A stretch of DNA of 64,000 bases from Candidatus Omnitrophota bacterium (GTDB lineage: Bacteria > Omnitrophota > Gorgyraeia > B26-G9), in NCBI GenBank assembly GCA_016213925.1, contig JACQZH010000013.1, positions 14,034-78,033 of the forward strand, written 5' to 3'. The translations under genes and the position numbers were made by a program. The notes under the pieces were generated by a model. That model made no database searches. It was not told the DNA's origin and saw only the letters and a list, made by a program, of their open reading frames with translations. This document shows, piece by piece, positions 1 to 15,913 of this stretch. How positions within the stretch are numbered: the first letter of the stretch is position 1; the number at the start of each line of letters is the position of its first letter.

Positions 1-136
1 TGATATCGTTCGGCAGTCCTCGTGCTGGATTTACCTTAACTCCGTTCATAATTTTATTTGCGGCCTTTTCTGTTTATTGCTTGATGGATTTAATAAGGTT
101 CGGGTTTTTATTTTTAATAAATATGACAAGGATGGG

Positions 137-1024
137 ATGATGCTCCAAAGTTTGAATGAAAAGTTGTCAAAATATGATGTGCCGTTATTTTTTCTGCTTG
201 CGGCTATCCTTATCGTGTCAAACTACCAAAGCAAAACAATGTTTGGGGTTGTCTTACTGGGAGGTTTTTATTTAATTGCCATGCCGCGGCTAATCTATCT
301 TTATTTGAAAGATAATAAAAACAGTTTCAAAAAGGTTATTTATATATATTTTATTATGATTTTTGTGCATGTGCATTTGACAACTCAGAGAGCTGATAGG
401 GCGGATAAAACCGAAGGGGCCGGCAACGAGCCTAAAAAAGTTTATAAAGTTTCCTTATCTTCCGAAGATAATATTCCGTTTTTGGAAAAACCGTATTTTT
501 ATAGCGGGATAAAAGTGCGGACTACGGAATTCAGTGAAGGCCGGAAGGTGGTTGATTGTTCCTTGGATGAGAAAAAATTATATTTTCAGTGCACTAAGAA
601 ATACAGTAACATAGAGAATTCTGATTTTTCTTTTTTGGTTACTTATTATCCGGAAATGATATCAGGCACTTCGAAGTTTACTATTGTTTTTCAGTTTACC
701 GATGAGATGGAAAGGGAACTGGGTTTTCTTACCTATGTTCTATACGGGGCAAGCGATTTTTATTTCCACGTCAACAATAAAGTCGAAGATAAGGTTTTCG
801 CGACTTATATTGTTGATCCTATAGAAGGAGAGTGGAAGACGTTTGAGGCAAAAAGCATAATCGATGACTATAACGCAAGGGCTAAACAATTGGAAGGCAA
901 GCTCTGGGCTGAGCTTAAGGTGAAAAAAATGAAATTAACGATAATGTCCTGGAATGCTGACGGAGAAATCATGAATGTTTATTTAAAAGGGTTGCAATTG
1001 CAGGAGCGTAAAAAGGAGCAATAG
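137..1024 (+). CDS. Bitopic membrane protein with a C-terminal copy of a novel ~130-aa domain (NSDFSF..YYP..LTYVLYG.SDYY..GEWK..DDYN..GKLW). The start is uncertain: the frame is open back to nt 2, so the gene may begin upstream of the window.
   Basis: ORF track 77..1024. The first in-frame ATG pair is at 137, preceded by an AAGGA at 127-131. A hydrophobic segment follows. The C-terminal domain aligns by eye with the two repeats at the end of the 977-aa protein (9752..12685). Confidence 0.5.
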   Translation: MMLQSLNEKLSKYDVPLFFLLAAILIVSNYQSKTMFGVVLLGGFYLIAMPRLIYLYLKDNKNSFKKVIYIYFIMIFVHVHLTTQRADRADKTEGAGNEPKKVYKVSLSSEDNIPFLEKPYFYSGIKVRTTEFSEGRKVVDCSLDEKKLYFQCTKKYSNIENSDFSFLVTYYPEMISGTSKFTIVFQFTDEMERELGFLTYVLYGASDFYFHVNNKVEDKVFATYIVDPIEGEWKTFEAKSIIDDYNARAKQLEGKLWAELKVKKMKLTIMSWNADGEIMNVYLKGLQLQERKKEQ

Positions 1025-1050
1025 AGAAAATTAATAAAATCGATGATTTT

Positions 1051-2052
1051 ATGCAGAAAAATCTGGATAATAAATTCAAAAACAAAAATATCTTAATAAC
1101 CGGTGGCTTGGGTTTTATCGGCAGTAATTTGGCGATAAAACTGGTTAATCTAGGGGCAAAAGTTACTTTGATGGACGCAATGCTTGCTGATTATGGGGCA
1201 AACAGGTTTAATATCGAGCCGGTAAAAGATAAAGTTAAAGTTGATGAAAGCGATATCCGCGACGCGGATTCGGTTAACAGGCTTGTTCAAGGTAAAGACT
1301 TTATATTTCATTTAGCAGGGCAGGTATCTCATGTTTTAAGCCTGTCTAATCCGTTTCTTGACATTGACATTAATATCAAGGGTACGGCAATGTTGATGGA
1401 AGCCTGCCGTAATTATAACAGGAGCGCGAAAGTAATTTATACTGGAACACGCGGCCAGTATGGAAGCGTCGTAAAACTGCCGGTAGATGAAACTACTCCG
1501 ACAAATCCAAAGGGAATTTATGAGATTTCAAACCTGACCGCGGAAAAGATTATTAAAGTTTACAATGATAACTTTGGCATAAAATGTGTGTTGCTCAGGC
1601 TGACCAATGTTTACGGGCCGCGTTCCCAAATGAAAAATGACCATTATGGGGTCGTGAACTGGTTTATGCGTTTAGCTCTTGAAGATAAAGAAATTAAGGT
1701 TTTTGGCGACGGCAAGCTAAAACGGGATTTCCTTTATGTTGACGATTGCGTGGATGCGTTAATAATGAGCGCGGCAAATGAGAATGCTTATGGTGAAATA
1801 TTCAATGTCGGCATAAATAAACCGACAACTTTTGTTGAATTGGCCGAGCTGATCGTTCAGATAGCGGGAAGCGGCAGGTGGGAATTCGCTCCTTTCTCCG
1901 CAGAAAGAAAAGCTTTGGAACCGGGAGATTATTATTCGGATATTTCTAAGATCAAGGAACATGTTACCTGGGAACCTAGAATTTCTCTTGCTGAAGGGAT
2001 AAAAGCATCGATTGGTTATTATCAAAAATACCGGACGCATTATTGGGAATAG
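1051..2052 (+). CDS. NAD-dependent sugar epimerase/dehydratase (extended SDR)
   Basis: N-terminal Rossmann motif ITGGLGFIGSNL. Its length and context in a glycan cluster fit a nucleotide-sugar epimerase/dehydratase. Confidence 0.75.
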   Translation: MQKNLDNKFKNKNILITGGLGFIGSNLAIKLVNLGAKVTLMDAMLADYGANRFNIEPVKDKVKVDESDIRDADSVNRLVQGKDFIFHLAGQVSHVLSLSNPFLDIDINIKGTAMLMEACRNYNRSAKVIYTGTRGQYGSVVKLPVDETTPTNPKGIYEISNLTAEKIIKVYNDNFGIKCVLLRLTNVYGPRSQMKNDHYGVVNWFMRLALEDKEIKVFGDGKLKRDFLYVDDCVDALIMSAANENAYGEIFNVGINKPTTFVELAELIVQIAGSGRWEFAPFSAERKALEPGDYYSDISKIKEHVTWEPRISLAEGIKASIGYYQKYRTHYWE

Positions 2053-2057
2053 AGAAT

Positions 2058-3020
2058 ATGAAAAAAATAAATATACTTGTCAGCGGAGTAAGCTCATCTA
2101 ATTCAATTACTTTTATAAAAGCATTGCGTAGACAGAAAGAAATTAAATTCAAAATTTTTGGAACTGATATTTATGAGAAAAACCTTTCGCAGGGTGCTTA
2201 TTTTTGTGATGGTTTTTTTAAGGTTTCAAAGGCAAATCAAAAAATGTTTATTCCCAAGTTATTGAAAATCTGCAAAGAAAATTCAATTAGAGTGCTGGTT
2301 CCGATTATTGAAGAGGAGTTTGCTTTAGTATCAAGAGCAACCGCTGAATTTAAAAAATGTGGTACTTTGGTTATGCTGCCTGATTCGAAAACGATACTAA
2401 TGTGTTTGAATAAGATAAAACTTTCCCGGTTTTTAGAAAAGCATGAATTCCCGACTCCTAAAATATACTTATCAGTGCCAGAAAGGAGCAGTTTTCCTTT
2501 AGTGAAAAAGCCGATTAAGGGCAGGGGGAGCAAGGGGATAAGCATAGTATACAGAAAAGAGGACATTAAACAGGCAAACCGTAATGATAAAAGCTGCTTT
2601 TTTCAGGAATTTATCAAAGGGCAGGAATACAGCGTGGATGTATTATCTGATAGAAGCGGAAAAGCAAAGGCGGTCTTTTGCCGGGTAAGATTGGAAGTAA
2701 GGGATGGTAAAAGCGTTAAGGCAATAACAGTGAGAAATAAAACAGTTGAGGATTTGGCGGTTAGGATCGCTGATGCTCTCGGCTTAAAGGGGCCTTCGTG
2801 CCTACAGTGTATTGTTGATAAAGACGGAGTGCCTTATTTTTTTGATGTTAATACAAGGATTGGCTCGGCTACTATTTTGACAGTTGAGGCAGGAGTAAAT
2901 ATCCCTTTTTTAGCGGTTAAAAGTTTGCTTGGCATGAAAATTGATAAATTAACCGGAAAGTTTAAAGAAAATATTATTATGCTGCGTTATCTTGATGAAA
3001 TTTTCACGCTGGTTGATTAA
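2058..3020 (+). CDS. ATP-grasp domain protein, a carboxylate-amine ligase-like enzyme in a glycan cluster
   Basis: ATP-grasp-like layout: N-terminal pre-ATP-grasp region, then the FPLVKKPIKGRGSKGI nucleotide-binding loop, then QEFIKGQEYSVDV. The start is either ATG 2058 or TTG 2043. Confidence 0.55.
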   Translation: MKKINILVSGVSSSNSITFIKALRRQKEIKFKIFGTDIYEKNLSQGAYFCDGFFKVSKANQKMFIPKLLKICKENSIRVLVPIIEEEFALVSRATAEFKKCGTLVMLPDSKTILMCLNKIKLSRFLEKHEFPTPKIYLSVPERSSFPLVKKPIKGRGSKGISIVYRKEDIKQANRNDKSCFFQEFIKGQEYSVDVLSDRSGKAKAVFCRVRLEVRDGKSVKAITVRNKTVEDLAVRIADALGLKGPSCLQCIVDKDGVPYFFDVNTRIGSATILTVEAGVNIPFLAVKSLLGMKIDKLTGKFKENIIMLRYLDEIFTLVD

Positions 3021-3034
3021 GGGGAAATATTTAT

Positions 3035-3703
3035 ATGAACATTTTTTTGGATTTTGACGGGCCTGTGCTTGATAACAAGGCTAGATTATATCAACTTTAT
3101 TTTGACCTTTTGGCCGAATTCGGCGGCAATCCTTTGCCTATCGATGAATATTGGCAGTTAAAAAGAAATTGTGTCAAAGAGGATGTAATATTAAAAGAAA
3201 AAAGCGGGTTTACCGAAGAGTTGAACGGAGATTATCAGAGGCTGCGTATTGAGCAAATTGAATCAAAGAGATATTTGAGCTTGAATGCGGTAATAAACGG
3301 TTGTTATGAGAGCCTTGACTTTTTGGCGAAACAAGGCGATTTGATGCTAATTACCAGCCGCAGGAACAGGGATAACCTTATCTGGGAGCTTAAAGATAAG
3401 AAACTTGAAAAGTATTTTAAAAAGATCCTATCGGATTTTAATGATTATCTGCCGGCTTGGCAGCTTAAGGTTGATTTAATACGAGAATTTATCCCTGAAT
3501 TCGGAAAAGCAGATATTATTGTGGGAGATACAGAAGCGGAGATTTTATGCGCAAAGGAGCTGGGGATTTATTCTATCGCTCTTTTGAGCGGAATCAGAAA
3601 TGAAGAAAAATTAAAATTATATGTTCCGGATATAATCTATGAGAATATAAATGAAGTTGTTAAAAATTGGACGCAGATTAAAACAAACGCGCAGAAGATA
3701 TGA
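3035..3703 (+). CDS. HAD-superfamily hydrolase/phosphatase
   Basis: N-terminal DxDGxV motif (FLDFDGPVLDN) and a downstream GDT..E motif, typical of a HAD phosphatase. Confidence 0.6.
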   Translation: MNIFLDFDGPVLDNKARLYQLYFDLLAEFGGNPLPIDEYWQLKRNCVKEDVILKEKSGFTEELNGDYQRLRIEQIESKRYLSLNAVINGCYESLDFLAKQGDLMLITSRRNRDNLIWELKDKKLEKYFKKILSDFNDYLPAWQLKVDLIREFIPEFGKADIIVGDTEAEILCAKELGIYSIALLSGIRNEEKLKLYVPDIIYENINEVVKNWTQIKTNAQKI

Positions 3704-4827
3704 AAAATATACTTTTTGTAGAGCTTTCCAGGGAATATAAGGCGCTAAGAAAAGAAATTGATTCAAAAGTGGCTAAGGTATTGGACTCTGGCCGTTTTTT
3801 GCTCGGGCCGGAATGCGCGAAATTTGAAGAAGCATTTGCCAAATATTGCGGAATTAAATTTTGTGTCGGGGTCGCTTCCGGGACAGAAGCAGTGGCATTG
3901 GCATTAATGGCATCAGGTACCGGGCATGGGGATTTGGTAATTACAGCAGCTAATACTGCGGTGCCTACTGTTTCGGCTATATCAATGAGCGGTGCAGAGC
4001 CTTTGTTTGTCGATATTGACGAAAAAACCATGTTAATGTCTCCGGAAAGTTTGCAAATCTGCTTAAAAAAGATGCCAAAGGCGATATTAAAGCGTATTAA
4101 AGCAATAATTCCTGTGCATCTTTACGGGCTTATGTGTGCGATGGATGAGATTAAGGCTATAGCTGATAAATATAAAATCGCTATTATAGAAGATTGCGCG
4201 CAGGCACACGGTGCGGAATATAAGGGTAAAAGAGCCGGTACTATAGGGATGTTTGGCTGTTATAGCTTTTATCCCAGCAAAAATCTCGGTTGTTACGGCG
4301 ACGGCGGTGCGGTTATTGTAGATAATACGAAATTATATGAAAAACTAACAATGCTTAGAAATTACGGGCAAACAGACAGGTATAACCATGAAATTATCGG
4401 TATTAACAGCAGGTTGAGCGAATTGCAGTCAGCGATATTGAACGTTAAACTTAAATATCTCGATGCTTGGAACGCAAGGCGCCGGTTTTTAGCGCAGATG
4501 TATACGAATGGGCTTAAAGATTATAATGTATGGTTTCAGGAATTCAGGCAACAGGAAAGATCGCATGTTTATCATCTTATGGTTTTGCGCAGCGATAAAA
4601 GGCAATCACTTGTAAAATATTTATCAGAGCAGGGCATCCACACGTTAATCCATTATCCTAGGCCGGTGTATTTGCAAAAGGCATACAGGAATATTATATA
4701 TAGAAAAAACAGCTGTAAAATTGCGGAGCGCACCTGCAAACAAATTTTCAGTATACCGCTTTATCCTTTTTTAAAAGATAAGGAAGCTAAATTTATAGTA
4801 GATAAATTAAGGAGGTTTTTAAAATGA
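3700..4827 (+). CDS. DegT/DnrJ/EryC1/StrS-family PLP-dependent sugar aminotransferase
   Basis: Family-typical N-terminus (LGPECAKFEEAFAKYCG..VGVASGTEAVALAL) and a length of about 375 aa. It overlaps its neighbours by 4 nt, indicating an operon. Confidence 0.85.
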   Translation: MKNILFVELSREYKALRKEIDSKVAKVLDSGRFLLGPECAKFEEAFAKYCGIKFCVGVASGTEAVALALMASGTGHGDLVITAANTAVPTVSAISMSGAEPLFVDIDEKTMLMSPESLQICLKKMPKAILKRIKAIIPVHLYGLMCAMDEIKAIADKYKIAIIEDCAQAHGAEYKGKRAGTIGMFGCYSFYPSKNLGCYGDGGAVIVDNTKLYEKLTMLRNYGQTDRYNHEIIGINSRLSELQSAILNVKLKYLDAWNARRRFLAQMYTNGLKDYNVWFQEFRQQERSHVYHLMVLRSDKRQSLVKYLSEQGIHTLIHYPRPVYLQKAYRNIIYRKNSCKIAERTCKQIFSIPLYPFLKDKEAKFIVDKLRRFLK

Positions 4828-5753
4828 CTACCTTAAGCATAATAGTGCCGGTTTTTTTTAATGAAGAAAGTCTTCCTTTGCTTTATGAAAAGCTTGAGCA
4901 GGTTTCGCGACAAATGAATAATGTGTGTTTTGAATATGTTTTTGTTGATGACGGCTCCAAAGATAATTCCTATAAGGTACTGCTGGATATTTCGAAAAGT
5001 GATAAACGTGTTAAAATTGTCAAGCTATCGCGCAATTTCGGTTCTTTTGTTGCCTGCTTTGCAGGGCTTACTTACGCAAAAGGCGATTGCGCTTTGATAA
5101 TGGCCGCGGATTTACAGGATCCTCCGGAATTGATCCCTGAACTTTTTAGTAAATGGCAACAAGGCAGTGAGGTGGTGTTTGCCGTTAAGCAAAAAAGGGA
5201 AGAAAGTAGTATGAATATTTTCTTTTCTTCGATATTTCACAGGATTTTTCGTCTTATCGCGTTGGGGAATGCTCCAAAACATGGATTTGATTTTGTTTTG
5301 ATCGGCAGAAAAGTAATTGATGTGCTGGTTAAATCAGGGGAGAAGAATTCTTCGATCATGGGGCAAATTATTTGGGCAGGATTTAAAACCGACCAGATAA
5401 GTTATACAAAGAAAGCACGCCTGCATGGTAAATCCCGCTGGAAATTCTGGACGAAAATAAAATATTTTATAGATTCAATAATGGCTTTTAGTTATTTCCC
5501 GATAAGAATGGCCTCATTTTTGGGTATTGGAATAGCTTTAATCGGTTTTATATTTGCTGTATATGCAGTCTACCGCAGGATTTTTTTTGGTGTTAATGTC
5601 CCGGGTTTTACGCTTTTGCTGGTTGTAATATTGCTGACCTCAGGCGCGCAAATGATTCTTTTGGGGATTATCGGCGAGTATATATGGAGAGCGCTTGATG
5701 AGGCAAGAAAAAGGCCTATTTTTATCGTAGACGAACTTATTAATAATGACTAG
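4824..5753 (+). CDS. GT2 polyprenyl-phosphate glycosyltransferase (ArnC/DPM1/GtrB-like) with C-terminal transmembrane helices
   Basis: Motifs IIVPVFFNEE, FVDDGSKDNS and LSRNFGSF, a DxD-type AADLQD, and two C-terminal hydrophobic helices. Confidence 0.85.
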   Translation: MTTLSIIVPVFFNEESLPLLYEKLEQVSRQMNNVCFEYVFVDDGSKDNSYKVLLDISKSDKRVKIVKLSRNFGSFVACFAGLTYAKGDCALIMAADLQDPPELIPELFSKWQQGSEVVFAVKQKREESSMNIFFSSIFHRIFRLIALGNAPKHGFDFVLIGRKVIDVLVKSGEKNSSIMGQIIWAGFKTDQISYTKKARLHGKSRWKFWTKIKYFIDSIMAFSYFPIRMASFLGIGIALIGFIFAVYAVYRRIFFGVNVPGFTLLLVVILLTSGAQMILLGIIGEYIWRALDEARKRPIFIVDELINND

Positions 5754-5816
5754 ATAGGATAATCCCAAATTTTGGGATAATAAATATAACTAATTTCTCT
5801 GAAGAAAGATAAGAAT

Positions 5817-7223
5817 TTGAATATTGCTTTGGTCTGGCCTTTTGGAAATGATTGCAACTGGGTTTTTCCAATGTCCATAGGGTTCCTTGAGGCTAATTTG
5901 CCTAAGGATAAGTTTAATACCTATGTTTTTGATTTTTCCCTGGAAAAAGTTAATCCGTATACGGAGAGAAAAAGATTAAAAACCTTTTTCGCGGATTTGG
6001 ATATAAATGTTTTTGGAATAAGCAGTGCCTTGTCTTTTAATTACCCTTATGCGCGTAAGACCGCTGAAATTATAAAAGAATTGATACCGCGGGCAAAAAT
6101 AGTCTTAGGCGGATGCCACGCGTCAATGACTGCATGTAAAATACTCGGAGAAAATGACAATATTGATTTTATATTAAAAGGAGAAGCAGAGTTTTCTTTC
6201 CCTGCATTGCTTGATTATTTTAAATCCAATTTATCGGAAGATGCTTTATCGCTGGTGCCGGGTTTAGTTTATAGGCGCAATAACAGCATTATGGAGAATC
6301 CTGCGGTTATTACTCAGGACTTAGACAGTATTAAGCCGGTTAATTACAGGAAAATGCGTTTAGAAGATTATGTCAAAGCCGGGTACCGTTACGGTACGAA
6401 TAATTTCGGTTTATCAGCGCCTTTGTGGATAAGCCGCGGCTGTCCTTACGGATGCACTTTTTGCTCGGCGTCGATTATGAACGGCAGAAAAGTCAGGTAC
6501 CACTCCATAGAATATGTAATCAAACTTATTAAGCATCTTTATGAGAAAGAAAATGTGAGAACGTTTACAATTATTGATGATAATTTCACGTTTGACCGTG
6601 CTTATGTTAAAAAATTCTGCTTTGAAGTAAAAAAACTCGGGTTTAAAGATATAAATATTGTTGCGCCTAACGGAGTGCGCATAGACAGGCTTGATCAGGA
6701 GACTTTAAAGCTGATGTATGAAGCCGGCTGGAGAGTCTTGATGGTTGCGATCGAAACGGATAATGAAAAAATAATGCAAAAAATGGATAAAAAGATCGAC
6801 CTTAAGGAAGTCCCCGGAAAAATTGCAATGATTAAAAGAGCAGGATTTAAGGTGCATAGCAATTTCATTTTAGGATTTCCCGGGGCATCCAGGGGAGATA
6901 TTAAGAAAACAATTGATTATGCCTGCCGTCTGGAGCTTGACATGGTTGGTTTCCCTAAATTTCAGCCTTTGCCTGGAACTAAGATGTTTGATGAGTTGTG
7001 TTCGAACGGAGAAATTGACGAGGATTTTCTGCCTGTTGAGTATAATGAAAAGTCTAAATATGCGCCAAAGGGAATAAAGACGCAAATGCTGGATAAGCTT
7101 CAGAGAAATGCGTATTTATTATTTTACCTGAGACATCCGGCTTCAATTTTGTTGTTGTTTGAGAATTATAGTATCAAGCATTTGCTCGGATATATAAGAA
7201 GAGTAATTATAGGAAAAAGTTAA
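5817..7223 (+). CDS. B12-binding-domain radical SAM enzyme (class B type), paralog 1
   Basis: CxxxCxxC motif (SRGCPYGCTFCS) preceded by a Rossmann-like B12-binding N-terminal region. The apparent start is TTG, and there is no in-frame ATG before the conserved N-terminus. Confidence 0.8.
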   Translation: MNIALVWPFGNDCNWVFPMSIGFLEANLPKDKFNTYVFDFSLEKVNPYTERKRLKTFFADLDINVFGISSALSFNYPYARKTAEIIKELIPRAKIVLGGCHASMTACKILGENDNIDFILKGEAEFSFPALLDYFKSNLSEDALSLVPGLVYRRNNSIMENPAVITQDLDSIKPVNYRKMRLEDYVKAGYRYGTNNFGLSAPLWISRGCPYGCTFCSASIMNGRKVRYHSIEYVIKLIKHLYEKENVRTFTIIDDNFTFDRAYVKKFCFEVKKLGFKDINIVAPNGVRIDRLDQETLKLMYEAGWRVLMVAIETDNEKIMQKMDKKIDLKEVPGKIAMIKRAGFKVHSNFILGFPGASRGDIKKTIDYACRLELDMVGFPKFQPLPGTKMFDELCSNGEIDEDFLPVEYNEKSKYAPKGIKTQMLDKLQRNAYLLFYLRHPASILLLFENYSIKHLLGYIRRVIIGKS

Positions 7224-7247
7224 GATTAACTTTGGAGTTTTTTTTGT

Positions 7248-8717
7248 ATGATTTTAGATAAAACAAAAGTGTTATTGATAGAACCTCCTCCTCTATGGAA
7301 ATACGGCAATCAGAGGTCTAAAGGAGCTTTCGGTAACCTTAAGACAGATATAAGATGGCCGCCGATCGATTTGATGGTTATTGCCGGATACCTTCGTAAA
7401 AATAATGTTGAAGTTGCGCTTATTGATGCCGGAGGAGAAAGGCTTATGATCGATAAGCTGGCAGAAAGCATATCGAACGTAGATGCCCGGCTGATCGTGA
7501 TTAATACTTCTACTACAACGATATATCATGATGTCAATATCGCAGAAAGAATAAAAAGAATCAAGCCGGCGGCTTTGGTAGGAGCAATCGGAGTTCATGT
7601 AATGGCATTGCCGGAAGAAACGCTAAAATTATCAGAGGGGTTGGATTTTGTCGTGGTTTCTGAGCCGGAAATTCCGATACTAAATCTGGCGAAAATCCTG
7701 GACTTGCCCGGAACCAAGGGTATTTGTTATCTGAAAAACAGTCAAATAATAAAAAATTTACCTGAGTCCCCGATTTCTAATCTGGATGAACTGGGAATGC
7801 CGGCGCATGATCTGGTGCCTTTGAATATATATAAAGAACCGCAGCTTAAAAGAAAGCCGATGACAATTACTATGGTCTCACGCGGTTGTATAAATAGGTG
7901 TATTTTTTGCAGTGCCTGTTTTTATGGTGATTACAGGTTGCGTTCGATTTCTAATGTTATGGAAGAACTAAAATGGATAAGCAGTGAACTAGGGGTAAAG
8001 GAGTTGAAATTTTATGACGATGGGATCACCTATAACCGTAAATGGGCAGTGAGCTTGTTTCAGGCAATGATTGATGAGAAAATTGACTTAACCTGGAATA
8101 CTAATCTCCGCGCGGATTCTATTGATTTGGAACTGGCTCAACTGATGAAAAAAGCAGGCTGCCATACGGTGAATATGGGGCTGGAAAGCGCTAATCAGGA
8201 TATTTTAAACAACATTAAAAAAAATGTTACGTTGGAAAAAATGGAGCAAGCTGTTAAATATTGCAAGCAAGCGGGATTAGAGGTTTGCGGGTATTTTGTT
8301 ATTGGTTTACCAGGGGAAACATTGGAAACTGTTAATCAGACTGTGGAATTTGCAAAACGGCTTGACTTGGACCTGGCTACTTTTAATGTGACGGCGCCAC
8401 ACCCCGGAACGGAATTTTTTGACTTTTTGCAGAAAAAAGGGTTTCTGAAAACTAAGAATTGGGAAAAATATGATACAAACAGCCTGCCTGTGTATGATTA
8501 TCCCAAAATGAGCGCGCAGGATATTTATAGCCTTGCGTTAAAGGCATACCGGCATTTTTATATGAGGCCGGGTTATTTTTTAAAAAGGCTTAAAAGAGTG
8601 AATTCCTTGCTGGAAATGAAAAATCTGGCAGAAAATTTTTTTGCGTTTATGGAAAATTTTATTATTAAAAGCGTAGCAAGGGATGTAATTGCTATTTTTA
8701 AAATGGAGAAGAAATGA
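7248..8717 (+). CDS. B12-binding-domain radical SAM enzyme, paralog 2
   Basis: CxxxCxxC motif (SRGCINRCIFCSA). The N-terminus KVLLIEPP is typical of the B12-binding domain. It is a clear paralog of the upstream gene. Confidence 0.8.
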   Translation: MILDKTKVLLIEPPPLWKYGNQRSKGAFGNLKTDIRWPPIDLMVIAGYLRKNNVEVALIDAGGERLMIDKLAESISNVDARLIVINTSTTTIYHDVNIAERIKRIKPAALVGAIGVHVMALPEETLKLSEGLDFVVVSEPEIPILNLAKILDLPGTKGICYLKNSQIIKNLPESPISNLDELGMPAHDLVPLNIYKEPQLKRKPMTITMVSRGCINRCIFCSACFYGDYRLRSISNVMEELKWISSELGVKELKFYDDGITYNRKWAVSLFQAMIDEKIDLTWNTNLRADSIDLELAQLMKKAGCHTVNMGLESANQDILNNIKKNVTLEKMEQAVKYCKQAGLEVCGYFVIGLPGETLETVNQTVEFAKRLDLDLATFNVTAPHPGTEFFDFLQKKGFLKTKNWEKYDTNSLPVYDYPKMSAQDIYSLALKAYRHFYMRPGYFLKRLKRVNSLLEMKNLAENFFAFMENFIIKSVARDVIAIFKMEKK

Positions 8718-9733
8718 AGAAAAAAGATTTATCTTTTTTTTACTGCCGCAGTTGTAATAAATCACTTGAAATAAAAGTAATTGATTCAAAAGCAGATGAT
8801 GTGCAAGAAGGAATTTTCAGCTGCTCTGGTTGCGGCCAGTGGTATCCGCTGACAGAGAGAATAGGGTTCTTTCTGAAAAATGATTACTCTTTTGCTGAAG
8901 AATTCAGGCAGAGGTTTGTGAAGAGGCATGCCTTAAAATTGGAAAATAAGAATTGTGACAGCGAGCAGTTATCTATTAAAGAAAAAAATAAGCAAATTGA
9001 ATTTTTTAATATTGAATCAGATTGTTATACCTATGTACATACTATGAGCCAATTTGTCCGGCTTTTAGATGCGCAGTTACTTAAGTTCTGGGGGCAATAT
9101 ATTCTTGAAAACGGTGTGATCATTGATCTGGGCTGTGGGACAGGGATGAGGACTTTGCCTTTGGCAGGGCAGTATACAAACAGTAATATAATCGGAGTTG
9201 ATATTTCAATAGGTATGATCCGTGTGGCGTTGAAGCATGCCCAAGATAAGGGATTAAATAATATTAGTTTTATTGTTGCTGACGCAGATAATCTTCCATT
9301 TGCCGCTGAAATTACTGAAACAGTTATCGGCCCAGGCATATTGCATCATGTGCCGGAACCTAAAGCTGTACTAAGGGAGGCGCAAAGGGTTTTAAAAACA
9401 AACGGATGTTATCTGGGAATTGAAAACAACCGGTCTGTTTTTCGTTTTGTTTTTGACTTTCTTCAGAAAATAAAACCTGCCTGGAGAGAGGAAGCGGGAA
9501 GGCATCCTTTGATTTCTGTTGAAGAGTTAATAAGATGGGGCAAGGAAGAGTTATTGGAGATTAGTGCTCATTCGCGTGTATTCCTTCCGCCGCAGCTAAT
9601 TAATAGTTTATCTTTGAATATGGCGGAAAAAGTTTTTAATTTTTCTGAAAATACAGGGCGATGGTTGCCGTTTATCCGCAATCATGGAGGGATGCTTTTT
9701 ATTCAGGGGAGAAAAATCGTTTCTCGCGATTAA
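8714..9733 (+). CDS. Class I SAM-dependent methyltransferase with an N-terminal Trm112-like zinc ribbon
   Basis: CxxC..CxxC (CRSCN..CSGCGQWYP) followed by motif I IIDLGCGTGMRT. A 4-nt overlap with the upstream radical SAM gene couples them. Confidence 0.75.
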   Translation: MKKKDLSFFYCRSCNKSLEIKVIDSKADDVQEGIFSCSGCGQWYPLTERIGFFLKNDYSFAEEFRQRFVKRHALKLENKNCDSEQLSIKEKNKQIEFFNIESDCYTYVHTMSQFVRLLDAQLLKFWGQYILENGVIIDLGCGTGMRTLPLAGQYTNSNIIGVDISIGMIRVALKHAQDKGLNNISFIVADADNLPFAAEITETVIGPGILHHVPEPKAVLREAQRVLKTNGCYLGIENNRSVFRFVFDFLQKIKPAWREEAGRHPLISVEELIRWGKEELLEISAHSRVFLPPQLINSLSLNMAEKVFNFSENTGRWLPFIRNHGGMLFIQGRKIVSRD

Positions 9734-9751
9734 AAATACAATTATCGGATT

Positions 9752-12685
9752 ATGAGTGCACAGAGGAAAAGAGTATTTAGTTTGTCTTTGGCGGGTCTAT
9801 GTTTGGCATGGATAATTTATGTTAGTTTTTTTGTGCGGCATGGATTGAGCCTGACTGATGCGGGATTAATATGCGCCCAATCATGGAGATTTTACTTGGG
9901 TGATATTCCTTTTAAAGATGTTTTTTGCATCCCGGTAAGTTTGTCGGATTACTTTTTAAGCATAGTCTTTGTAGCATACCCTGATTGCGGATTGCTGGCT
10001 TTGAGAATTATCTGGGCAATAATATTATTTATAGCGATTGCTTTTTCATACAAAATTATAACCAGGTTTTATTCCGTTTATCTGGCATTTCCGGCAATGA
10101 TATGCTCGTTAAGTATATTTGCCATGCATGGAATTGACTTGCCGGGTTATAATAATACCCCAGAGATGTTTTTTATTATTTCAATATTTTTACTGTTTTG
10201 GTCACTTTGTTCAAACCATAAGCAGAAAATATTTATTTATGGCGTTCTTTCCGGGTTTGCTGCGTTTACAGCTGTTTTGTGTAAGGTCACTTATCTTCCC
10301 ATAGCCGGGATTGGTTTTATTTGCCTGTTAGTTTCACTATTGATTAAATCAGAGGTAAAAAAACACATTTTGTGCGCATCGCTGATTTTTACGATGACTT
10401 TTTTTGTAAGTTTAGCAGCGTTCCTGATATTTTTATACGTAAACGGATTGTTCGAAGAGTTTTTGATGGATTTTCGTGTGCATACCCAAGGGGGTGCTTA
10501 TTCTTCAATTATTATTTCCGGATTGTTTGGAAAAGGAAGTATTTTTTTGTTAAAGGCATTACCTCTGGTTATATCATGTATTTTTTTTAATCTAGTTTGT
10601 GGTTATTTTTTGCGGAAAAAAATGATTTTTTTACGGATAGGATGTCAAGCCATACTTGTATGTTTGTTTTATTTATTTTTTCTGCGTATGTTTTCTTTTC
10701 CTGGATATTTTATTTATGGATATGCTTATGCTTTGCTAGGCGTAGGAATAATTTTGTATTGGAAAAATATCTTTGAAGAAAAAGATAAAGATATAATTGT
10801 AACTAATCAATTAAAAATAATATTACTTTTGCTGGCAGGATTTCTGCAGTGGCTGTGTACGCTTTATTCGAGCCATGGGATATACACTTCTCATAAAGGG
10901 ATGTTTTTAAGCCTGCCGCTGGCCTGGATAATATCCTGGGAATTGCCGGTATACATTAAAAAAGCGGGGCAATTAAATAAGAAAGAATTACTATCCTATC
11001 GAATAGTAATTCTGGTTTTTGCGCTTATTATTGCGTTTTATGCATTTGGTTTTAAATTAAAACACCCTTATCTGGATAGTCCTGACCGATCTGAACTATG
11101 CGTTGCGTTCAAAACAAAAAAGCTTAAGGGGATTTTTTCAACTAAAAAACATGTAGAGATAATAGACCGTTTAACTGAGTTTATGGGGACGAGGATAAAA
11201 AGAGGCGAGTATCTGCTTACTTATATAAATTTGCCGATGATCAGCTTTTTACTGGAGGCGCGTCCGGCAACAAGGATTACCTGGTTTTCCGGGATATCCA
11301 ATCCTCTGGATAAGCCGGCTGTGGAAGATTTGAAGAAAACCAAGCCGAAATTTGTTATACGCACTCACCAGTATATGTGTTCAAATACCTGGCCTGATAA
11401 GGTTAACCTTTTACTGGATGCGCCTGGGTCTGAAGTTTTTTACGTAGATAATTATGTGCAGGCAAACTACGAGCTTGTAAATAAGATTGATGCTTTTGAG
11501 ATTTTGCAGAGAAATGATGAATATTTTAATGAAGAATTAAATATTGATAATAAAATCAGCTTTTTTGAACAGGATTTTTACGTTAAGAATGATAAACATA
11601 AATTTAAAATAAATGATTTTTTCGGAGAAAAGGCGTATGATTTTTCGGTTTCAGGGAAGCGTATGGTATATAAAAACTGTTATAAATTTTTTAAAAATGC
11701 AGGTAATTCTGATTTTTCTTTTAAGCTTAAATACTATCCTCAAAGATTAACAGGATTTGCTGATTTTAATGTGCGTTTTAAGGCGCTGACTTATGTGCTT
11801 TATGGCCGGGCAGATTATTATTATCCGGCCAATGAGATAATTGACGGAAAAGTTTATGCTTGCCGGATAATTGAGCCGCAATTTGGACATTGGAAAGAAT
11901 TACGCGTGGATTCTATTGTGGCAGATTATGAAAAGATAAGCAGGCAGTTGCAAGGGCCGTTATATGATGAGATGGAAATATCCCAGGTTATGGTTTCGCT
12001 TAATTCCAGAGCAGGCCAGGATTCTTCGATTTTGGTGTATCTTGCTGATTTTAATGTAGTTGAGAATAATGTTGACTATGCAAGGATAGATAATGCTATC
12101 AAAAATGCATCAGTATATAGCCAATATGGGATCATTTTATTTAATAAAAGGCATTATGTTGATAATAAGGTGATGGAAAGATGTGTGCAACAGTTTGAAA
12201 AAGAGAATGTAATCCGGTTTTCTGAACCAAGGCTAGAAGGGCAGTTGGTTTTTACCAAGGAATATCAAAATGCGGACAATAGTTATTTTTCTTTTCAAAC
12301 GGAATATTTTCCTGAAAAATTACAAGGCATAACCAAATTTAACCTGCAGTTTGAACTTTTGGATAATAGCTCAATTCCTGTAGGGAACTTAACTTATGTA
12401 TTATATGGCAAGAGCGATTATTATTGTAACGTAAATCAAAAGATTAACGGAAATATTTTTGCAACCTATATAATAAATCCTCAGCAGGGAGAATGGAAAA
12501 ATTTAGTTGTCAATTCGCTTACAGACGATTATAATAATATTTCTACTCGGCTGGGGGGGAAGTTATGGCAAGAATTAAATATAAGTAAAATAAAAGTACT
12601 GTTGTTTTCTTTTGGTACGCAACAGCCGGATGATGAGATGTCAGTTTGCCTTAAGAGGTTGGAAATAAAGAAGAACCAACGTTAG
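9752..12685 (+). CDS. Large membrane protein: an N-terminal polytopic domain of about 450 aa, then two tandem copies of a novel ~130-aa domain
   Basis: Many hydrophobic helices in the N-terminal half. The C-terminal repeats (about 11676..12070 and 12260..12640) share NSxFSF..YYP..LTYVLYG.(A/S)DYY..GxWK..DYxxIS..L.G.L(Y/W). The same domain occurs at the C-terminus of the first gene in the window. Confidence 0.7.
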   Translation: MSAQRKRVFSLSLAGLCLAWIIYVSFFVRHGLSLTDAGLICAQSWRFYLGDIPFKDVFCIPVSLSDYFLSIVFVAYPDCGLLALRIIWAIILFIAIAFSYKIITRFYSVYLAFPAMICSLSIFAMHGIDLPGYNNTPEMFFIISIFLLFWSLCSNHKQKIFIYGVLSGFAAFTAVLCKVTYLPIAGIGFICLLVSLLIKSEVKKHILCASLIFTMTFFVSLAAFLIFLYVNGLFEEFLMDFRVHTQGGAYSSIIISGLFGKGSIFLLKALPLVISCIFFNLVCGYFLRKKMIFLRIGCQAILVCLFYLFFLRMFSFPGYFIYGYAYALLGVGIILYWKNIFEEKDKDIIVTNQLKIILLLLAGFLQWLCTLYSSHGIYTSHKGMFLSLPLAWIISWELPVYIKKAGQLNKKELLSYRIVILVFALIIAFYAFGFKLKHPYLDSPDRSELCVAFKTKKLKGIFSTKKHVEIIDRLTEFMGTRIKRGEYLLTYINLPMISFLLEARPATRITWFSGISNPLDKPAVEDLKKTKPKFVIRTHQYMCSNTWPDKVNLLLDAPGSEVFYVDNYVQANYELVNKIDAFEILQRNDEYFNEELNIDNKISFFEQDFYVKNDKHKFKINDFFGEKAYDFSVSGKRMVYKNCYKFFKNAGNSDFSFKLKYYPQRLTGFADFNVRFKALTYVLYGRADYYYPANEIIDGKVYACRIIEPQFGHWKELRVDSIVADYEKISRQLQGPLYDEMEISQVMVSLNSRAGQDSSILVYLADFNVVENNVDYARIDNAIKNASVYSQYGIILFNKRHYVDNKVMERCVQQFEKENVIRFSEPRLEGQLVFTKEYQNADNSYFSFQTEYFPEKLQGITKFNLQFELLDNSSIPVGNLTYVLYGKSDYYCNVNQKINGNIFATYIINPQQGEWKNLVVNSLTDDYNNISTRLGGKLWQELNISKIKVLLFSFGTQQPDDEMSVCLKRLEIKKNQR

Positions 12686-12708
12686 TTAAATTTAAAAATG
12701 AGAATTAA

Positions 12709-13887
12709 ATGAAAAGTGAACTATTGCTTTTAACCCGCAATTTTTATCCGACAATAGGCGGGGTTGAAGTTTATATTCTGGAGTTTATTAAGTTTTTTAC
12801 GGCAAAAGGCAGGGGAAAAATCCATGTATTATGCCCCAAAAAAAGTGCTTTGCCAGATGAACTTAAAAACGGGCATGTTTATTTATATTCTCCAAAAAGT
12901 AATTTTACTTTTTTCGAGATAGATCATGTTTTAACGGGGATAAAGGCTTATTTTCAAATAATTATTTTTTTTGTTATTTTTTTTATTCAGGGAAGCGGAT
13001 TCCTGCTTAAAAAAAACAATAAAATTAAGGTAATATATGCGGTCGGCGGAATAGTAGCTATTATGTCAGCTTTGGCCTTGGGCAGGATATTCGGCAAAAA
13101 AATATTCGGGCATATGCATGCTGATTTTCAGTTTTCCCAGTTTCCAAAGTTGTGGAAGGATTTTTATAAAAAGATTTTTTCGGGCTTGGATAAGGTCTTT
13201 GTTAACTCCCGGGACGGCAAAATCGATTTGGAAAAAATAGGGGTGGACAAAACAAAGATTGAAATAATAGATAACTGGGCTGATGGGAGCATATTTGAGT
13301 TAAAAGACAAAGAAAGCTGCCGAAAGGCTTTGAAGTTGCCCTTAGATAAAAAGATCTTTTTGTTTGTAGGCAGGCTGTCTTTTGAAAAAGGCATTAATGA
13401 GGTTTTGGATTGTATTGAGCAGTATAGAAATAGAGAGGATATTTTTTTTGTTATTATCGGTGACGGCCATTTGAAAGAGAAGGTATTCAATTGCATTAAA
13501 GATAATAAACAGGCTGTTTATGCCGGTTCGAAAAAAACAAAAGAACTCGTGGATTACTATAATGCTGCGGATGCTGCTTTATGGGGGTCGATTGATACAT
13601 ATTATATATCGATTACTATGATAGAAGGCTTTCATTGCGGGCTGCCGGCATTATGTCCAAAGGGCACAACCAATGTGCCTAAATGGGGAAAGAAAGAATT
13701 TGAGATTAAAGACGGGGTTCTCCCTGATTTTGCCGGAATATTATTTGAAAGCAGTGCTAAGGGGTTGTCTGAGGCAATAGAAAAGTTCTTAAAAATGAAA
13801 TTTGACAGCAAAAAAATTAAAGAATATGCGCTAATGAAATATTCCGAAAAGAACGCAGAACGTATCGTAGAGGAGATGTTTTCTTAA
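12709..13887 (+). CDS. GT4 (GT-B fold) glycosyltransferase
   Basis: N-terminal LLLTRNFYPTIGGVEVYI, a typical GT4 start. The C-terminal half has an E-x7-E-like region. Length is about 390 aa. Confidence 0.75.
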   Translation: MKSELLLLTRNFYPTIGGVEVYILEFIKFFTAKGRGKIHVLCPKKSALPDELKNGHVYLYSPKSNFTFFEIDHVLTGIKAYFQIIIFFVIFFIQGSGFLLKKNNKIKVIYAVGGIVAIMSALALGRIFGKKIFGHMHADFQFSQFPKLWKDFYKKIFSGLDKVFVNSRDGKIDLEKIGVDKTKIEIIDNWADGSIFELKDKESCRKALKLPLDKKIFLFVGRLSFEKGINEVLDCIEQYRNREDIFFVIIGDGHLKEKVFNCIKDNKQAVYAGSKKTKELVDYYNAADAALWGSIDTYYISITMIEGFHCGLPALCPKGTTNVPKWGKKEFEIKDGVLPDFAGILFESSAKGLSEAIEKFLKMKFDSKKIKEYALMKYSEKNAERIVEEMFS

Positions 13888-13888
13888 G

Positions 13889-14545
13889 ATGAAGATAATT
13901 GCTCACCGCGGCTTATGGAAAAAGGCGAATGAGAAAAATACGCCTGATGCCTTTGAAAAAGCGCTTAAAAGCGGCTACGGTATTGAATTTGATGTACGCG
14001 ATTATAAAAAAGGGCTTGTTATTGCCCATAATATGGCTGATAAAAATTCTCCCGGTCTTTACTGGGTTTTTGACCGGTTAAAAAAGATTGAGAGTTTTTC
14101 AAAGGTAATATTTGCCGTAAATATAAAATGTGATTCTATTGAGCGGGAAGTTTTAAAATTCCTCCAGGATTATGGCATAATCAAAAATTCTTTTATTTTT
14201 GATATGTCTTTTCCTGCGACGTATGTTTTTAAGAAGTATTGCGAAAAAATAAATATTGCAGCCAGGCAGAGCGAATTTGAAAAAGAGCCTTTCTTTTACA
14301 GCCAGGTGCAGTGGCTTTGGCTGGATGAGTTTGAAAAGCACTGGATAGATAATAAGACTATCGTCAAACATATAGAAAACGGTAAAAAGGTTTGTATCGT
14401 TTCTCCTGAATTGCATGGAAGAAACCATGAGAAAGCCTGGGCGCAATATTCGAAATTGCCGGAAAAATATTTTAAATATATGGCTTTGTGCACTGATTTT
14501 CCGGATGAGGCAGAGCGTTTTTTTATAACAGGTGAAGGTAGATGA
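13889..14545 (+). CDS. Glycerophosphodiester phosphodiesterase (GDPD)-family protein
   Basis: N-terminal IIAHRG motif followed by EFDVR, the catalytic signature of GP-PDE. Confidence 0.6.
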   Translation: MKIIAHRGLWKKANEKNTPDAFEKALKSGYGIEFDVRDYKKGLVIAHNMADKNSPGLYWVFDRLKKIESFSKVIFAVNIKCDSIEREVLKFLQDYGIIKNSFIFDMSFPATYVFKKYCEKINIAARQSEFEKEPFFYSQVQWLWLDEFEKHWIDNKTIVKHIENGKKVCIVSPELHGRNHEKAWAQYSKLPEKYFKYMALCTDFPDEAERFFITGEGR

Positions 14546-15268: not shown

Positions 15269-15913
15269 ATGATAAAAGCGGTTATCTTTGATATGGATGG
15301 TGTTCTTATAGACGCTAAGGAATGGCATTACGAGGCGCTTAACAAGGCGCTTCGTTTATTCGGTTATGAGATTACCCGGCATGAGCATCTGGTAAGTTAT
15401 GACGGGCTTCCGACAAAAGAAAAGCTTAAAATGTTGTCTCTGGAAAGGGACCTTCCGGCAAAACTGCATGATTTTATCAATGAAATGAAACAGCGCTATA
15501 CGGTTGAAGCTATTTTTAATCATTGCCGGCCTTATTTTACTCATCAATATGCTTTAGCCAGATTAAAACAGCAAAAATACAAGATTGCCGTGTGTTCGAA
15601 CTCGATAAGGGACACTGTTCAGTTAATGATGGAAAAAAGCGATCTGCTAAAATATATTGATTTTTATCTTAGTAACCAGGATATTAAAAAGCCGAAACCT
15701 GATCCGGAGATGTATGAAAAGGCGGTTATAAAGTTATCGCTAAAACCTGAAGAGTGCCTGGTATTGGAAGATAATAAAAACGGGATTATTGCTGCGGAAA
15801 CTGCCGGGTGCAATGTTTATGTTGTTGATAGCGTCGAAGAGGTGAATTTTACCAATATCGAAAAGAAGATAAAAGAGATAGACGCTCAAAAGAGAGGTAA
15901 AAAACATGCATAA
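15269..15913 (+). CDS. HAD-superfamily hydrolase (beta-phosphoglucomutase/phosphatase-like)
   Basis: Motif IKAVIFDMDGVLID. A GGGGAG RBS lies 8 nt upstream of ATG 15269. The ORF-track start at 15194 probably over-extends the gene. Confidence 0.7.
   Translation: MIKAVIFDMDGVLIDAKEWHYEALNKALRLFGYEITRHEHLVSYDGLPTKEKLKMLSLERDLPAKLHDFINEMKQRYTVEAIFNHCRPYFTHQYALARLKQQKYKIAVCSNSIRDTVQLMMEKSDLLKYIDFYLSNQDIKKPKPDPEMYEKAVIKLSLKPEECLVLEDNKNGIIAAETAGCNVYVVDSVEEVNFTNIEKKIKEIDAQKRGKKHA

Follow-up and report, generated by a model that had tools for sequence, protein, structure and literature searches.

Two radical S-adenosylmethionine (SAM) enzymes with B12-binding domains, RS1 and RS2, and a class I SAM methyltransferase, MT1, are encoded side by side in a 64-kb stretch of contig JACQZH010000013.1 from a Candidatus Omnitrophota bacterium (the whole stretch analysed is called the window). 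We propose, with moderate confidence, that the three proteins form the tailoring unit of a lipid-carrier glycosylation pathway resembling the Arn and Gtr systems. The proposal builds on features that can be observed directly, namely the domain architectures, the layout of the operon, the conservation of a gene cassette across related loci, the arrays of B12-radical SAM genes found together with family 2 (GT2) and C-fold (GT-C) glycosyltransferases, and the affinities of RS1 and RS2 to characterised enzymes.

Operon layout and domain architecture

The window is AT-rich (GC content about 0.37), and nearly all of its long open reading frames (ORFs) are on the + strand. RS1, RS2 and MT1 are closely packed in the same direction (Table 1), with 63 nt between the upstream GT2 gene and RS1, 24 nt between RS1 and RS2, an overlap of 4 nt between RS2 and MT1, and 18 nt between MT1 and the next gene. 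An earlier reading made from the letters alone (the sequence-only reading) had predicted translational coupling from this overlap, which is borne out: the stop codon of RS2 and the start codon of MT1 share the ATGA at 8714-8717. No sign of an internal terminator was seen across positions 1-14000, where terminator-like sites were at chance level (13 seen against 11.0 expected from shuffles) in a scan that in itself proves nothing, and promoter-like sites in the same region were modestly above chance level.

The description of RS1 and RS2 as adjacent genes of class B radical SAM architecture, each joining a B12-binding domain to a CxxxCxxC core, holds for both proteins. Radical_SAM (PF04055) scores 79 bits in RS1 and 106 bits in RS2 (gathering cut-off 29.5), and B12-binding (PF02310) scores 43 and 56 bits, respectively (cut-off 32.1). 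The cluster motif of RS1 is CPYGCTFC (C209-x3-C213-x2-C216, at 6441-6464) and that of RS2 is CINRCIFC (C214-x3-C218-x2-C221, at 7887-7910), and the three cysteines are invariant in the family alignment of each enzyme. AlphaFold2 models of both proteins match TsrM, MgmA, OxsB, CysS and TokK across both domains. The two had also been called paralogs, which is right at the level of the superfamily only: they are 24% identical and fall into separate clades, so that a recent tandem duplication is ruled out as their origin.

The NCBI annotation of RS1 (450 aa) begins 18 codons 3' of the TTG at 5817. RS1 and its 15 nearest homologues share the N-terminus 'MKIALIWPxG', a conserved first beta strand, which is encoded from that TTG. 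The TTG is therefore the better start, and the deposited one is probably wrong.

Table 1. Features of the glycan operon in the window and their coordinates
Feature	Position	Strand	Remarks
NDP-sugar 4,6-dehydratase/epimerase (short-chain dehydrogenase/reductase; NDP, nucleoside diphosphate)	1051..2052	+	Pfam Epimerase 172 bits, GDP_Man_Dehyd 170 bits
ATP-grasp ligase (PRK12767-like)	2043..3020	+	Pfam ATP-grasp_3 76 bits, PylC-like_N; NCBIfam PRK12767.1-4 206 bits
HAD-family phosphatase	3035..3703	+	Pfam HAD_2 45 bits
DegT-type sugar aminotransferase (PseC/ArnB-like)	3700..4827	+	Pfam DegT_DnrJ_EryC1 375 bits
ArnC/PgfS/GtrB-type GT2	4824..5753	+	Pfam Glycos_transf_2 81 bits; C-terminal transmembrane (TM) helices aa 231-285
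RS1, B12-binding-domain radical SAM enzyme, methylase-like, lineage-specific accessory	5817..7223	+	468 aa, TTG start
RS2, B12-binding-domain radical SAM enzyme, conserved cassette core (clade A, HpnJ/AprD4-like)	7248..8717	+	489 aa
MT1, class I SAM methyltransferase with N-terminal CxxC...CxxC (Trm112-like) module	8714..9733	+	339 aa
977-aa membrane protein, N-terminal domain of about 13 TM segments, divergent GT-C-like	9752..11521	+	hhalign to PMT_2
977-aa membrane protein, C-terminal extracytoplasmic part, two copies of a domain of about 170 aa	11537..12685	+	internal matches
MT2, second methyltransferase	19364/19367-20293	+	Methyltransf_23 83 bits

A recurrent cassette around RS2

Six of the genes in Table 1, those for the dehydratase/epimerase, the ATP-grasp ligase, the HAD phosphatase, the DegT enzyme, the ArnC-like GT2 and RS2, make up a cassette that is conserved at 44-73% identity across related loci. 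It was found in five of them (L002/L011, L004, L010, L031 and L032), from Omnitrophota, a Thermodesulfovibrionales metagenome-assembled genome (MAG) and metagenome contigs, and the closest RS2 orthologues, 65-73% identical, stand in cassettes of the same type as that of the window. A gene for a GT-C membrane glycosyltransferase is usually found close to them. The dehydratase/epimerase gene opens the cassette; its top NCBIfam model is dTDP-glucose 4,6-dehydratase (162 bits, under the cut-off), and its orthologues in L004, L010, L031 and L032 are 65-73% identical. ATP-grasp orthologues (48-52%) adjoin GT2/RS2 genes in L002, L004 and L031, HAD orthologues are found in L004, L010 and L031 (44-46%) and DegT orthologues in L010 and L031 (56-57%). 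The DegT enzyme itself scores 243 bits against PseC and 220 bits against ArnB, each under its cut-off. Orthologues of the GT2 (57-71%) lie directly 5' of the RS2 orthologue or one gene off.

The gene orders separate what is constant from what varies. The window runs dehydratase/epimerase, ATP-grasp, HAD, DegT, ArnC-like GT2, RS1, RS2, MT1 and a 977-aa membrane protein. L032 has an epimerase (73% identity), ATP-grasp, HAD, DegT, GT2 (71%), a methyltransferase and then the RS2 orthologue, and L031 has ATP-grasp (52%), HAD (46%), DegT (57%), GT2 (60%), a clade-B-like B12-radical SAM gene and the RS2 orthologue, followed by a DUF362/ferredoxin gene, two more radical SAM genes, a 379-aa ORF, PMT_2 and an epimerase (68%). 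In L004, epimerase, ATP-grasp, HAD, GT2 and the RS2 orthologue have PMT_2 genes alongside; L010 shows HAD, DegT and GT2 and, further on, the RS2 orthologue and GT-C; L002/L011 shows two PMT_2 genes, a 348-aa ORF, ATP-grasp, GT2, the RS2 orthologue, a methyltransferase and FdtA. The slot between GT2 and RS2 is thus filled by RS1 in the window, by a clade-B-like radical SAM gene in L031 and by a methyltransferase in L032. Judged by these gene orders, the ArnC-like GT2 has RS2 as its conserved core partner, and the position of RS1 is a putative variable tailoring slot. That RS1 might be a conserved upstream partner (clade C) is ruled out, given that it is a singleton and that other genes occupy its slot in L031 and L032.

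These assignments to clades come from a clustering of 61 B12-radical SAM proteins taken from the loci, in which RS2 belongs to clade A, with 20 members, while RS1 stands isolated, its nearest relative being 41% identical. A triad of clades C, A and B recurs in loci of Nitrospirota, Omnitrophota, Elusimicrobia and Planctomycetota and in other contigs. Context was counted in 19 non-redundant clade-A loci, within the flanks fetched. A further B12-radical SAM gene is present in 18 of the 19 and directly adjacent in 12, hence the tandem arrangement goes beyond chance; GT2 is present in 13 and GT-C in 12, the latter often directly 3' of the array. The homologues therefore do not sit in unrelated operons, as might have spoken against the sequence-only reading, but in similar glycan operons across many phyla. 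Around the relatives of RS1 (L008 and L009) there are GT2, radical SAM, heptose-pathway and Wzt-type ABC transporter genes.

Among the candidates scored, 811 relatives of RS2 were found at E<1e-10. The named ones are from Omnitrophota, Planctomycetota/Brocadiaceae, Elusimicrobia, Portnoybacteria and DPANN archaea, and GTDB representatives extend the range to Thermodesulfovibrionales/Nitrospirota, Nitrospinota, Sedimentisphaerales and Patescibacteria. In arrays of paralogs, RS2-type enzymes occur in Omnitrophota, Nitrospirota, Planctomycetota (anammox bacteria among them) and Elusimicrobia, with distant ones in Patescibacteria and DPANN archaea.

Three of the loci deserve separate mention. Directly after the 73%-identical RS2 orthologue of L031, positions 10464-11612 encode a DUF362 protein with weak-to-faint Pfam matches to ferredoxin-type 4Fe-4S domains, and which might supply electrons specifically to the radical SAM enzymes; the window ORFs that were scanned against Pfam include no counterpart. 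Lawsonia intracellularis has the same gene kit on a 27-kb plasmid (L027, NZ_CP107057.1, 2455-17063). The plasmid cluster begins with GT2, GalE, GT2, two DUF2304 genes and a SIS-domain gene, continues with a radical SAM gene of the B12 type, which belongs to clade G, is 31% identical to RS2 and overlaps a downstream class I methyltransferase gene, and ends with another radical SAM gene, four further methyltransferases, GT2, HAD-IIIA and a GHMP kinase; two of its six class I methyltransferase ORFs resemble one split gene. We found no paper on this cluster. Finally, an IncF plasmid of Citrobacter portucalensis (L029, NZ_CP134684.1, 11971-20889) holds five distant radical SAM genes, 26% identical to RS2, next to genes for GH3, an N-acetyltransferase, a PAP2 phosphatase and a fatty-acid desaturase, a context of the lipid type in a host that is tractable. 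The Citrobacter and Solidesulfovibrio plasmid arrays were not used as functional evidence, being distant (26-27% identity) and placed in lipid and mixed contexts, respectively.

Affinities of RS2

No NCBIfam model reaches its cut-off for either enzyme, and the scores nevertheless differ between the two (Table 2). For RS2, the best family model is that of HpnJ, matched over the full length. The AlphaFold2 model of RS2 (predicted local distance difference test, pLDDT, 93) has AprD4 as its top fold match over the whole length (E 1e-27, TM-score 0.73-0.82), and AprD4 is also the best target of its family profile when the profiles of both families are searched against PDB sequences.

Table 2. Bit scores of RS2 and RS1 against NCBIfam models, and of their family profiles against PDB sequences
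Target	RS2	RS1	Cut-off
NCBIfam HpnJ (TIGR03471)	255 (full length)	152	577.6
NCBIfam BchE (TIGR02026)	181	141	481
NCBIfam PhpK	136	107	600
NCBIfam AprD4 (NF033070)	111	66	500
NCBIfam Sden_1168	122	152	575
NCBIfam ApyD	102	144	750
NCBIfam MgmA	105	104	360
NCBIfam HpnR	68-78 (both enzymes)		650
PDB AprD4 (family profile)	184	108	
PDB MgmA (family profile)	117	132	
PDB OxsB (family profile)	79	57	
PDB TsrM (family profile)	75	67	
PDB TokK (family profile)	65	77	
PDB CysS (family profile)	53	92	

HpnJ, to which a ring contraction of hopanoid-linked glucosamine has been assigned from knockouts only (PMC13459092), shares the two-domain architecture of RS2. Annotated HpnJ proteins of Mycetohabitans and Paraburkholderia are 29-30% identical to RS2 over 95% of its length, against a coverage of only 67% on RS1. 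The likeness extends to the genes, since the HpnJ gene directly follows that of a GT2 (HpnI) and the enzyme has lipid-linked glucosamine as its substrate (PMC13459092), and GT2 and RS2 genes are adjacent in the same way. In Mycetohabitans rhizoxinica the order is hpnI(GT2)-hpnJ-hpnK-LPG_synthase_TM, which is paralleled by GT2-radical SAM-methyltransferase-LPG_synthase_TM in Portnoybacteria (L007). The two membrane proteins with the LPG_synthase_TM domain (7282-8343 in the Mycetohabitans locus, L030, and 10131-11078 in L007) may represent a shared flippase-like partner.

These parallels raise the question of whether the product of RS2, alone or together with RS1, is a lipid head group, made either by contracting the ring of a lipid-linked hexosamine to a carbocyclic cyclitol in the manner of HpnJ or calditol synthase or by modifying a polyprenyl or membrane lipid, in which case the final product would be a membrane glycolipid and not a transferable sugar. 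The full-length HpnJ matches and the mirrored gene order fit this idea, as do the lipid context of the distant Citrobacter array and the ring contraction proposed for both HpnJ and Cds (PMC13459092). Yet a cyclitol phosphate is no glycosyl donor, whereas GT-C follows the array in many loci. The score of RS2 is less than half of the HpnJ cut-off, and true HpnJ stands nearer to clades C and G, at 250-289 bits, than it does to RS2, at 180 bits. The GT2 of the window is ArnC/PgfS-like and not HpnI, and no hopanoid genes (shc, hpnH, hpnI, hpnK) were found among the ORFs scanned in the window. We thus regard a head-group product as quite improbable. The BchE score has no matching context either, as the window holds no chlorophyll or haem genes.

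AprD4 (PDB 6FD2), the radical SAM 1,2-diol dehydratase of apramycin biosynthesis, is the closest solved structure to RS2, with about 490 columns aligned and a common N-terminal 'LLxxP...PPLDLM' element, and its substrate contains the glucosamine ring of paromamine. It differs in several respects: the identity is 21-22%, the family-model score is far from the cut-off, and the enzyme belongs to an antibiotic pathway with a free pseudodisaccharide as substrate. Furthermore, AprD4 and ArsL have a related domain and yet bind no cobalamin (PMC12931638), while RS2 passes the Pfam cut-off for B12-binding. With HpnJ and AprD4 as its nearest characterised relatives, RS2 leans towards two non-methylating enzymes that work on glucosamine rings. 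Because the conserved member of the pair is nearest to such enzymes, an annotation 'B12-radical SAM, hence C-methylation' is unsafe here.

Affinities of RS1 and the case for two methylases

RS1 leans the other way. Its AlphaFold2 model (pLDDT 90) has MgmA as the top fold match, then CysS, TsrM and AprD4, and also matches TokK, with Foldseek E values of 4e-24 to 1e-19 against MgmA, CysS and TokK. The best profile matches of RS1 point to the same true cobalamin-dependent methylases, with which it shares the layout of a Rossmann domain plus a partial TIM barrel. The differences are that the identity is 17-19%, that these enzymes act on a protein, an aryl ether and a carbapenam, and that TokK and CysS (626-681 aa) have long C-terminal domains, which RS1 with its 468 aa lacks. 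Most likely RS1 is a cobalamin-dependent C-methylase.

The known multi-gene sets of class B enzymes are mostly methylase sets, and one could extend the assignment of RS1 to RS2, as the sequence-only reading had done. Both enzymes would then be cobalamin-dependent C-methyltransferases of the GenK/GenD1/Fom3/MoeK5 type that put methyl branches on unactivated sugar carbons, with an O-methyl group from MT1 possibly lengthened in the fashion of CysS, and the product would be C-methylated or alkylated surface glycan sugars. The two proteins do pass the B12-binding cut-off, and the Rossmann region of the RS2 family profile aligns to the cobalamin binders TokK, OxsB and MgmA and not to that region of AprD4. 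In addition, each group of the sequence similarity network that has a characterised member contains C-methyltransferases (PMC12931638, section 6). The S-layer O-glycan of the anammox bacterium Kuenenia, in which six sugars carry as many as five methyl groups, O- or C-linkage being unsettled (PMC5088730), would fit as well, and RS2 relatives occur in Brocadiaceae MAGs.

However, this reading accounts for RS1 better than for RS2. By family model, profile and fold, the characterised enzymes nearest to RS2 are HpnJ, BchE and AprD4, none of which methylates, and the class B C-methyltransferase models matched (KedN5, HpnR, MgmA) are nowhere near their cut-offs. A separate class I methyltransferase is repeatedly coupled or fused to RS2-type enzymes, for which a cobalamin-dependent methylase would have no need. 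The prediction that both enzymes are C-methylases is accordingly not supported in that form: RS1 alone leans towards true methylases, and RS2 groups in part with non-methylating lipid and tetrapyrrole families (HpnJ, BchE), at scores far under the cut-offs. Two methylases are therefore rather unlikely in our view. Sequence cannot settle the chemistry, because non-methylating members lack any clear structural trait by which to set them apart from the alkylating ones (PMC12931638, section 6). The broader wording of the sequence-only reading, 'otherwise unusually modified sugars', is still a fair description.

MoeK5 probably acts on a sugar linked to a lipid phosphate. Among characterised class B enzymes, C-methylation of sugars is confined to MoeK5, GenK, GenD1 and Fms7 (as listed in PMC12931638). 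The four are set beside RS1 and RS2 by class and not by direct sequence comparison, and they differ in serving secondary metabolism, in antibiotic pathways, rather than envelope glycans and in having no GT-C partner.

The methyltransferases

The methyltransferase domain of MT1 is secure, with the fold signature at aa 121-277 and Methyltransf_31 (82 bits), Methyltransf_25 (79) and Methyltransf_11 (73) all above their cut-offs, and its closest PDB relatives are assorted small-molecule and sugar O-methyltransferases. The Trm112-like ribbon that had been proposed for its N-terminus fares less well: the first 50 residues do contain the cysteine motif (C11xxC14-x22-C37xxC40-x3-YPL), but the match to Pfam Trm112p (PF03966; E 0.0044, 17.4 bits) is under the 22-bit cut-off, so that a zinc ribbon is no more than plausible. 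Much the same applies to MT2, which had been read as a second zinc-ribbon methyltransferase. It is a real methyltransferase with four N-terminal cysteines (C5xxxC9 ... C24xxC27), but zinc-ribbon models give no support, and its kinship to MT1 is marginal (20% identity, E 0.002).

A class I methyltransferase gene adjoins a B12-radical SAM gene in L002, L006, L007, L022, L032 and the Lawsonia plasmid, and in three proteins (P0017, P0058 and P0031) an RS2-like enzyme is fused to a class I methyltransferase domain. These partners are different class I methyltransferases, which rules out MT1 as a single conserved orthologous partner of RS2.

Flanking glycosyltransferase and membrane proteins

The GT2 upstream of RS1 matches the NCBIfam models of PgfS (210 bits, cut-off 500) and ArnC (167 bits, cut-off 529) over the full length. 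Since both scores are under the cut-offs, it is an equivalog of neither, and from its domain and C-terminal helices it is a probable polyprenyl-phosphate glycosyltransferase. On the other side of the three genes lies the 977-aa protein (9752-12685), with about 13 TM segments within the first 440 residues and no Pfam or NCBIfam match, even in a relaxed Pfam scan. A word-index search returned the protein itself alone, and an exhaustive phmmer search returned 420 relatives, mostly of about 600 aa, that match residues 1-590. When a profile of 30 relatives was compared by hhalign with ten PMT_2 proteins from the related loci, the probability was 96.5% (E 8e-10), and a near-invariant aspartate, D36 (consensus DLTDEG; TDAG in the window protein), was placed on the invariant 'GDE' aspartate of PMT_2. 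Among the 30 relatives, one matches PMT_2 and one Glyco_transf_22 in Pfam. A GT-C-like nature of the 977-aa protein is thus supported at the level of remote homology, and the glycan context claimed for RS1, RS2 and MT1, with a GT2 of the polyprenyl-phosphate type on one side and GT-C-like membrane proteins on the other, agrees with what we find.

The domain of about 170 aa without Pfam match that occurs twice in the 977-aa protein (aa 596-771 and 817-977) has a third copy at the C-terminus of a 315-aa two-TM protein (77-1024), to which the two copies are 32% (E 5e-25) and 42% (E 5e-35) identical. A parallel module lies in the same operon at 18587-24367, where an AglJ/PpgS-like polyprenyl-phosphate GT2 (18587-19342) is accompanied by MT2 and by multi-TM proteins of 724 and 620 aa; neither has a Pfam match, and the former is weakly PMT_2-like (E 7e-6). 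Further downstream (32717-38185) are two paralogs of about 830 aa, 41% identical, each with about nine TM segments and a C-terminal DUF3108, followed by a 135-aa protein with four or five TM segments, a possible flippase subunit by its marginal EamA match (29.4 bits, cut-off 28.2).

The PMT_2 family is described as protein-glycosylating, which brings in protein or peptide as a substrate of the radical SAM enzymes, either through MgmA-like C-methylation of a protein targeted by the GT-C or through maturation of a ribosomally synthesized and post-translationally modified peptide (RiPP) precursor. MgmA/QCMT (PDB 9CCB), the best PDB relative of RS1, is indeed a cobalamin-dependent enzyme that C-methylates a glutamine in a protein (PMC12931638, PMC11796369), the models of ApyD and other radical SAM enzymes of RiPP pathways give 76-144 bits, and ORFs of 66-79 aa lie near the relatives in L002, L008 and L009. 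Nevertheless, no precursor-like small ORF or RiPP recognition element was found at 5700-9800, no protease, leader peptidase or exporter is close by, and the conserved partners are all sugar-nucleotide or glycosyltransferase genes. Such a substrate would be very improbable indeed.

Proposed pathway

In the Arn and the Gtr/CsbB-YfhO systems, a GT2 loads a sugar onto polyprenyl phosphate, the sugar is changed on the lipid, and after flipping a multi-TM GT-C transfers it. The Arn pathway begins with a sugar-nucleotide dehydratase and an aminotransferase, and its on-lipid step is carried out by the deformylase ArnD. The operon of the window has a similar layout, with the ArnB model matching the DegT enzyme (220 bits) and the ArnC model matching the GT2 (167 bits). 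It differs in that the equivalog cut-offs are unmet, that the GT-C is too divergent for Pfam models and that the on-lipid step would consist of radical SAM chemistry and methylation in place of deformylation.

By this logic, which is how we infer the substrate, the lipid-linked timing, the use of cobalamin and each chemical step, the dehydratase would turn an NDP-hexose into a keto sugar, which the DegT enzyme would aminate and which the ATP-grasp ligase might N-acylate or amidate, the HAD phosphatase being involved at this stage. The ArnC-like GT2 would load the sugar onto polyprenyl phosphate. At the cytoplasmic face, RS2 would then alter the sugar ring by means of a 5'-deoxyadenosyl radical, either by C-methylation or by a rearrangement or deoxygenation of the HpnJ/AprD4 type, RS1 would most likely put a C-methyl group on the sugar, and MT1 would put on an O- or N-methyl group. 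Once complete, the lipid-linked sugar would be flipped, and the GT-C-like 977-aa protein would pass it on to an acceptor in the periplasm or at the surface, with lipid A/core, a glycan or a protein as candidates. We place RS2, RS1 and MT1 at the modification step because their genes lie between those of the GT2 and the GT-C-like protein, because RS2 co-varies with the ArnC-like GT2, and because the nearest named relative, HpnJ, works on its lipid-linked sugar immediately after a GT2.

Several observations weigh against this proposal. The family-model scores are far under the equivalog cut-offs (HpnJ 255/577.6, AprD4 111/500, MgmA 104/360). AprD4, the closest structure to RS2, binds no cobalamin (PMC12931638), which is why cobalamin use by RS2 is a prediction only. 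The methyltransferase partners do not form one orthologous group, being about 25-33% identical to MT1, with that of L002 not detectably related to it, and only 6 of the 19 clade-A loci have a class I methyltransferase. The GT-C assignment of the 977-aa protein is one of remote homology over about 190 columns, and the sole small transporter-like flippase candidate, that with the EamA match (37778-38185), is encoded 28 kb downstream. The gene content would also be compatible with action on the NDP-sugar ahead of lipid loading.

Other features of the window

The whole 64 kb is coded on one strand, and its GC skew is uniformly positive. At 26310-31088 are genes for an HddA-like GHMP kinase (157 bits), a transketolase split into two genes for its N- and C-terminal halves, an RfbH-like DegT enzyme and a nucleotidyltransferase. 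GHMP kinase, SIS, HAD and NTP-transferase genes are found likewise in L006, L008 and the Lawsonia plasmid, with a TAL_FSA domain in L006 and L008, and such sets suggest a heptose or another higher sugar in these glycans. Directly after a full-length gene for an NTP_transferase (15906-16652) comes a 115-aa ORF (16652-16999) whose match to the NTP_transferase model is limited to the model's N-terminal 100 positions; this ORF is perhaps a truncated copy or a pseudogene. An AbiEii toxin and AbiEi-like antitoxin pair (39437-40850) lies within the glycan cluster, between a DAO-family oxidoreductase and rml-like sugar genes.

The glycan cluster is separated from housekeeping genes by the genes at 46636-53472. 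At 46636-47706, a ParA/MinD-type ATPase carries a fused CBM48/AMPK glycogen-binding module, which is an unusual combination; a DUF4912 protein is encoded at 50244-51686 and a GH57 branching enzyme at 51847-53472. The housekeeping block that follows (53525-60124) reads uppS-cdsA-dxr-rseP-ispG-proS, and the glycan cluster therefore lies in the core chromosome, beside the gene for undecaprenyl-diphosphate synthase.

Implications

A tailoring role of class B radical SAM enzymes is established for antibiotics, cofactors, hopanoids and proteins. We found no paper that describes the present module of radical SAM, GT2 and GT-C genes, nor any report of class B radical SAM enzymes in envelope glycosylation by way of a lipid carrier and a GT-C. 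The enzyme class and the logic of the pathway are thus known, whereas their combination appears to be undescribed, and the same holds for how large the HpnJ/AprD4-like clade is and how widely it occurs in envelope glycan operons among uncultured anaerobes.

It is worth considering a wider idea, which we think unlikely and put forward only tentatively, that RS2 represents a large HpnJ/AprD4-like branch doing radical chemistry on polyprenyl-phosphate-linked sugars ahead of GT-C transfer. If so, ring rearrangement to carbasugars, radical deoxygenation and iterative C-alkylation would be candidate reactions, and the branch would stand for a class of envelope glycan modification without characterised precedent, in which the variable slot diversifies the surface.

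The Lawsonia intracellularis plasmid cluster offers a cultured entry point to this chemistry, and the S-layer glycan of Kuenenia could serve as a test case, provided that the Kuenenia genome carries an RS2 relative. The loci often hold three to five B12-radical SAM paralogs. Because the cassette recurs across many uncultured anaerobic phyla, the sugar modification is probably a common but unseen feature of the cell surface of uncultured anaerobes, and as such it bears on recognition between phage and host, on the attachment of episymbionts and on biomarker chemistry.

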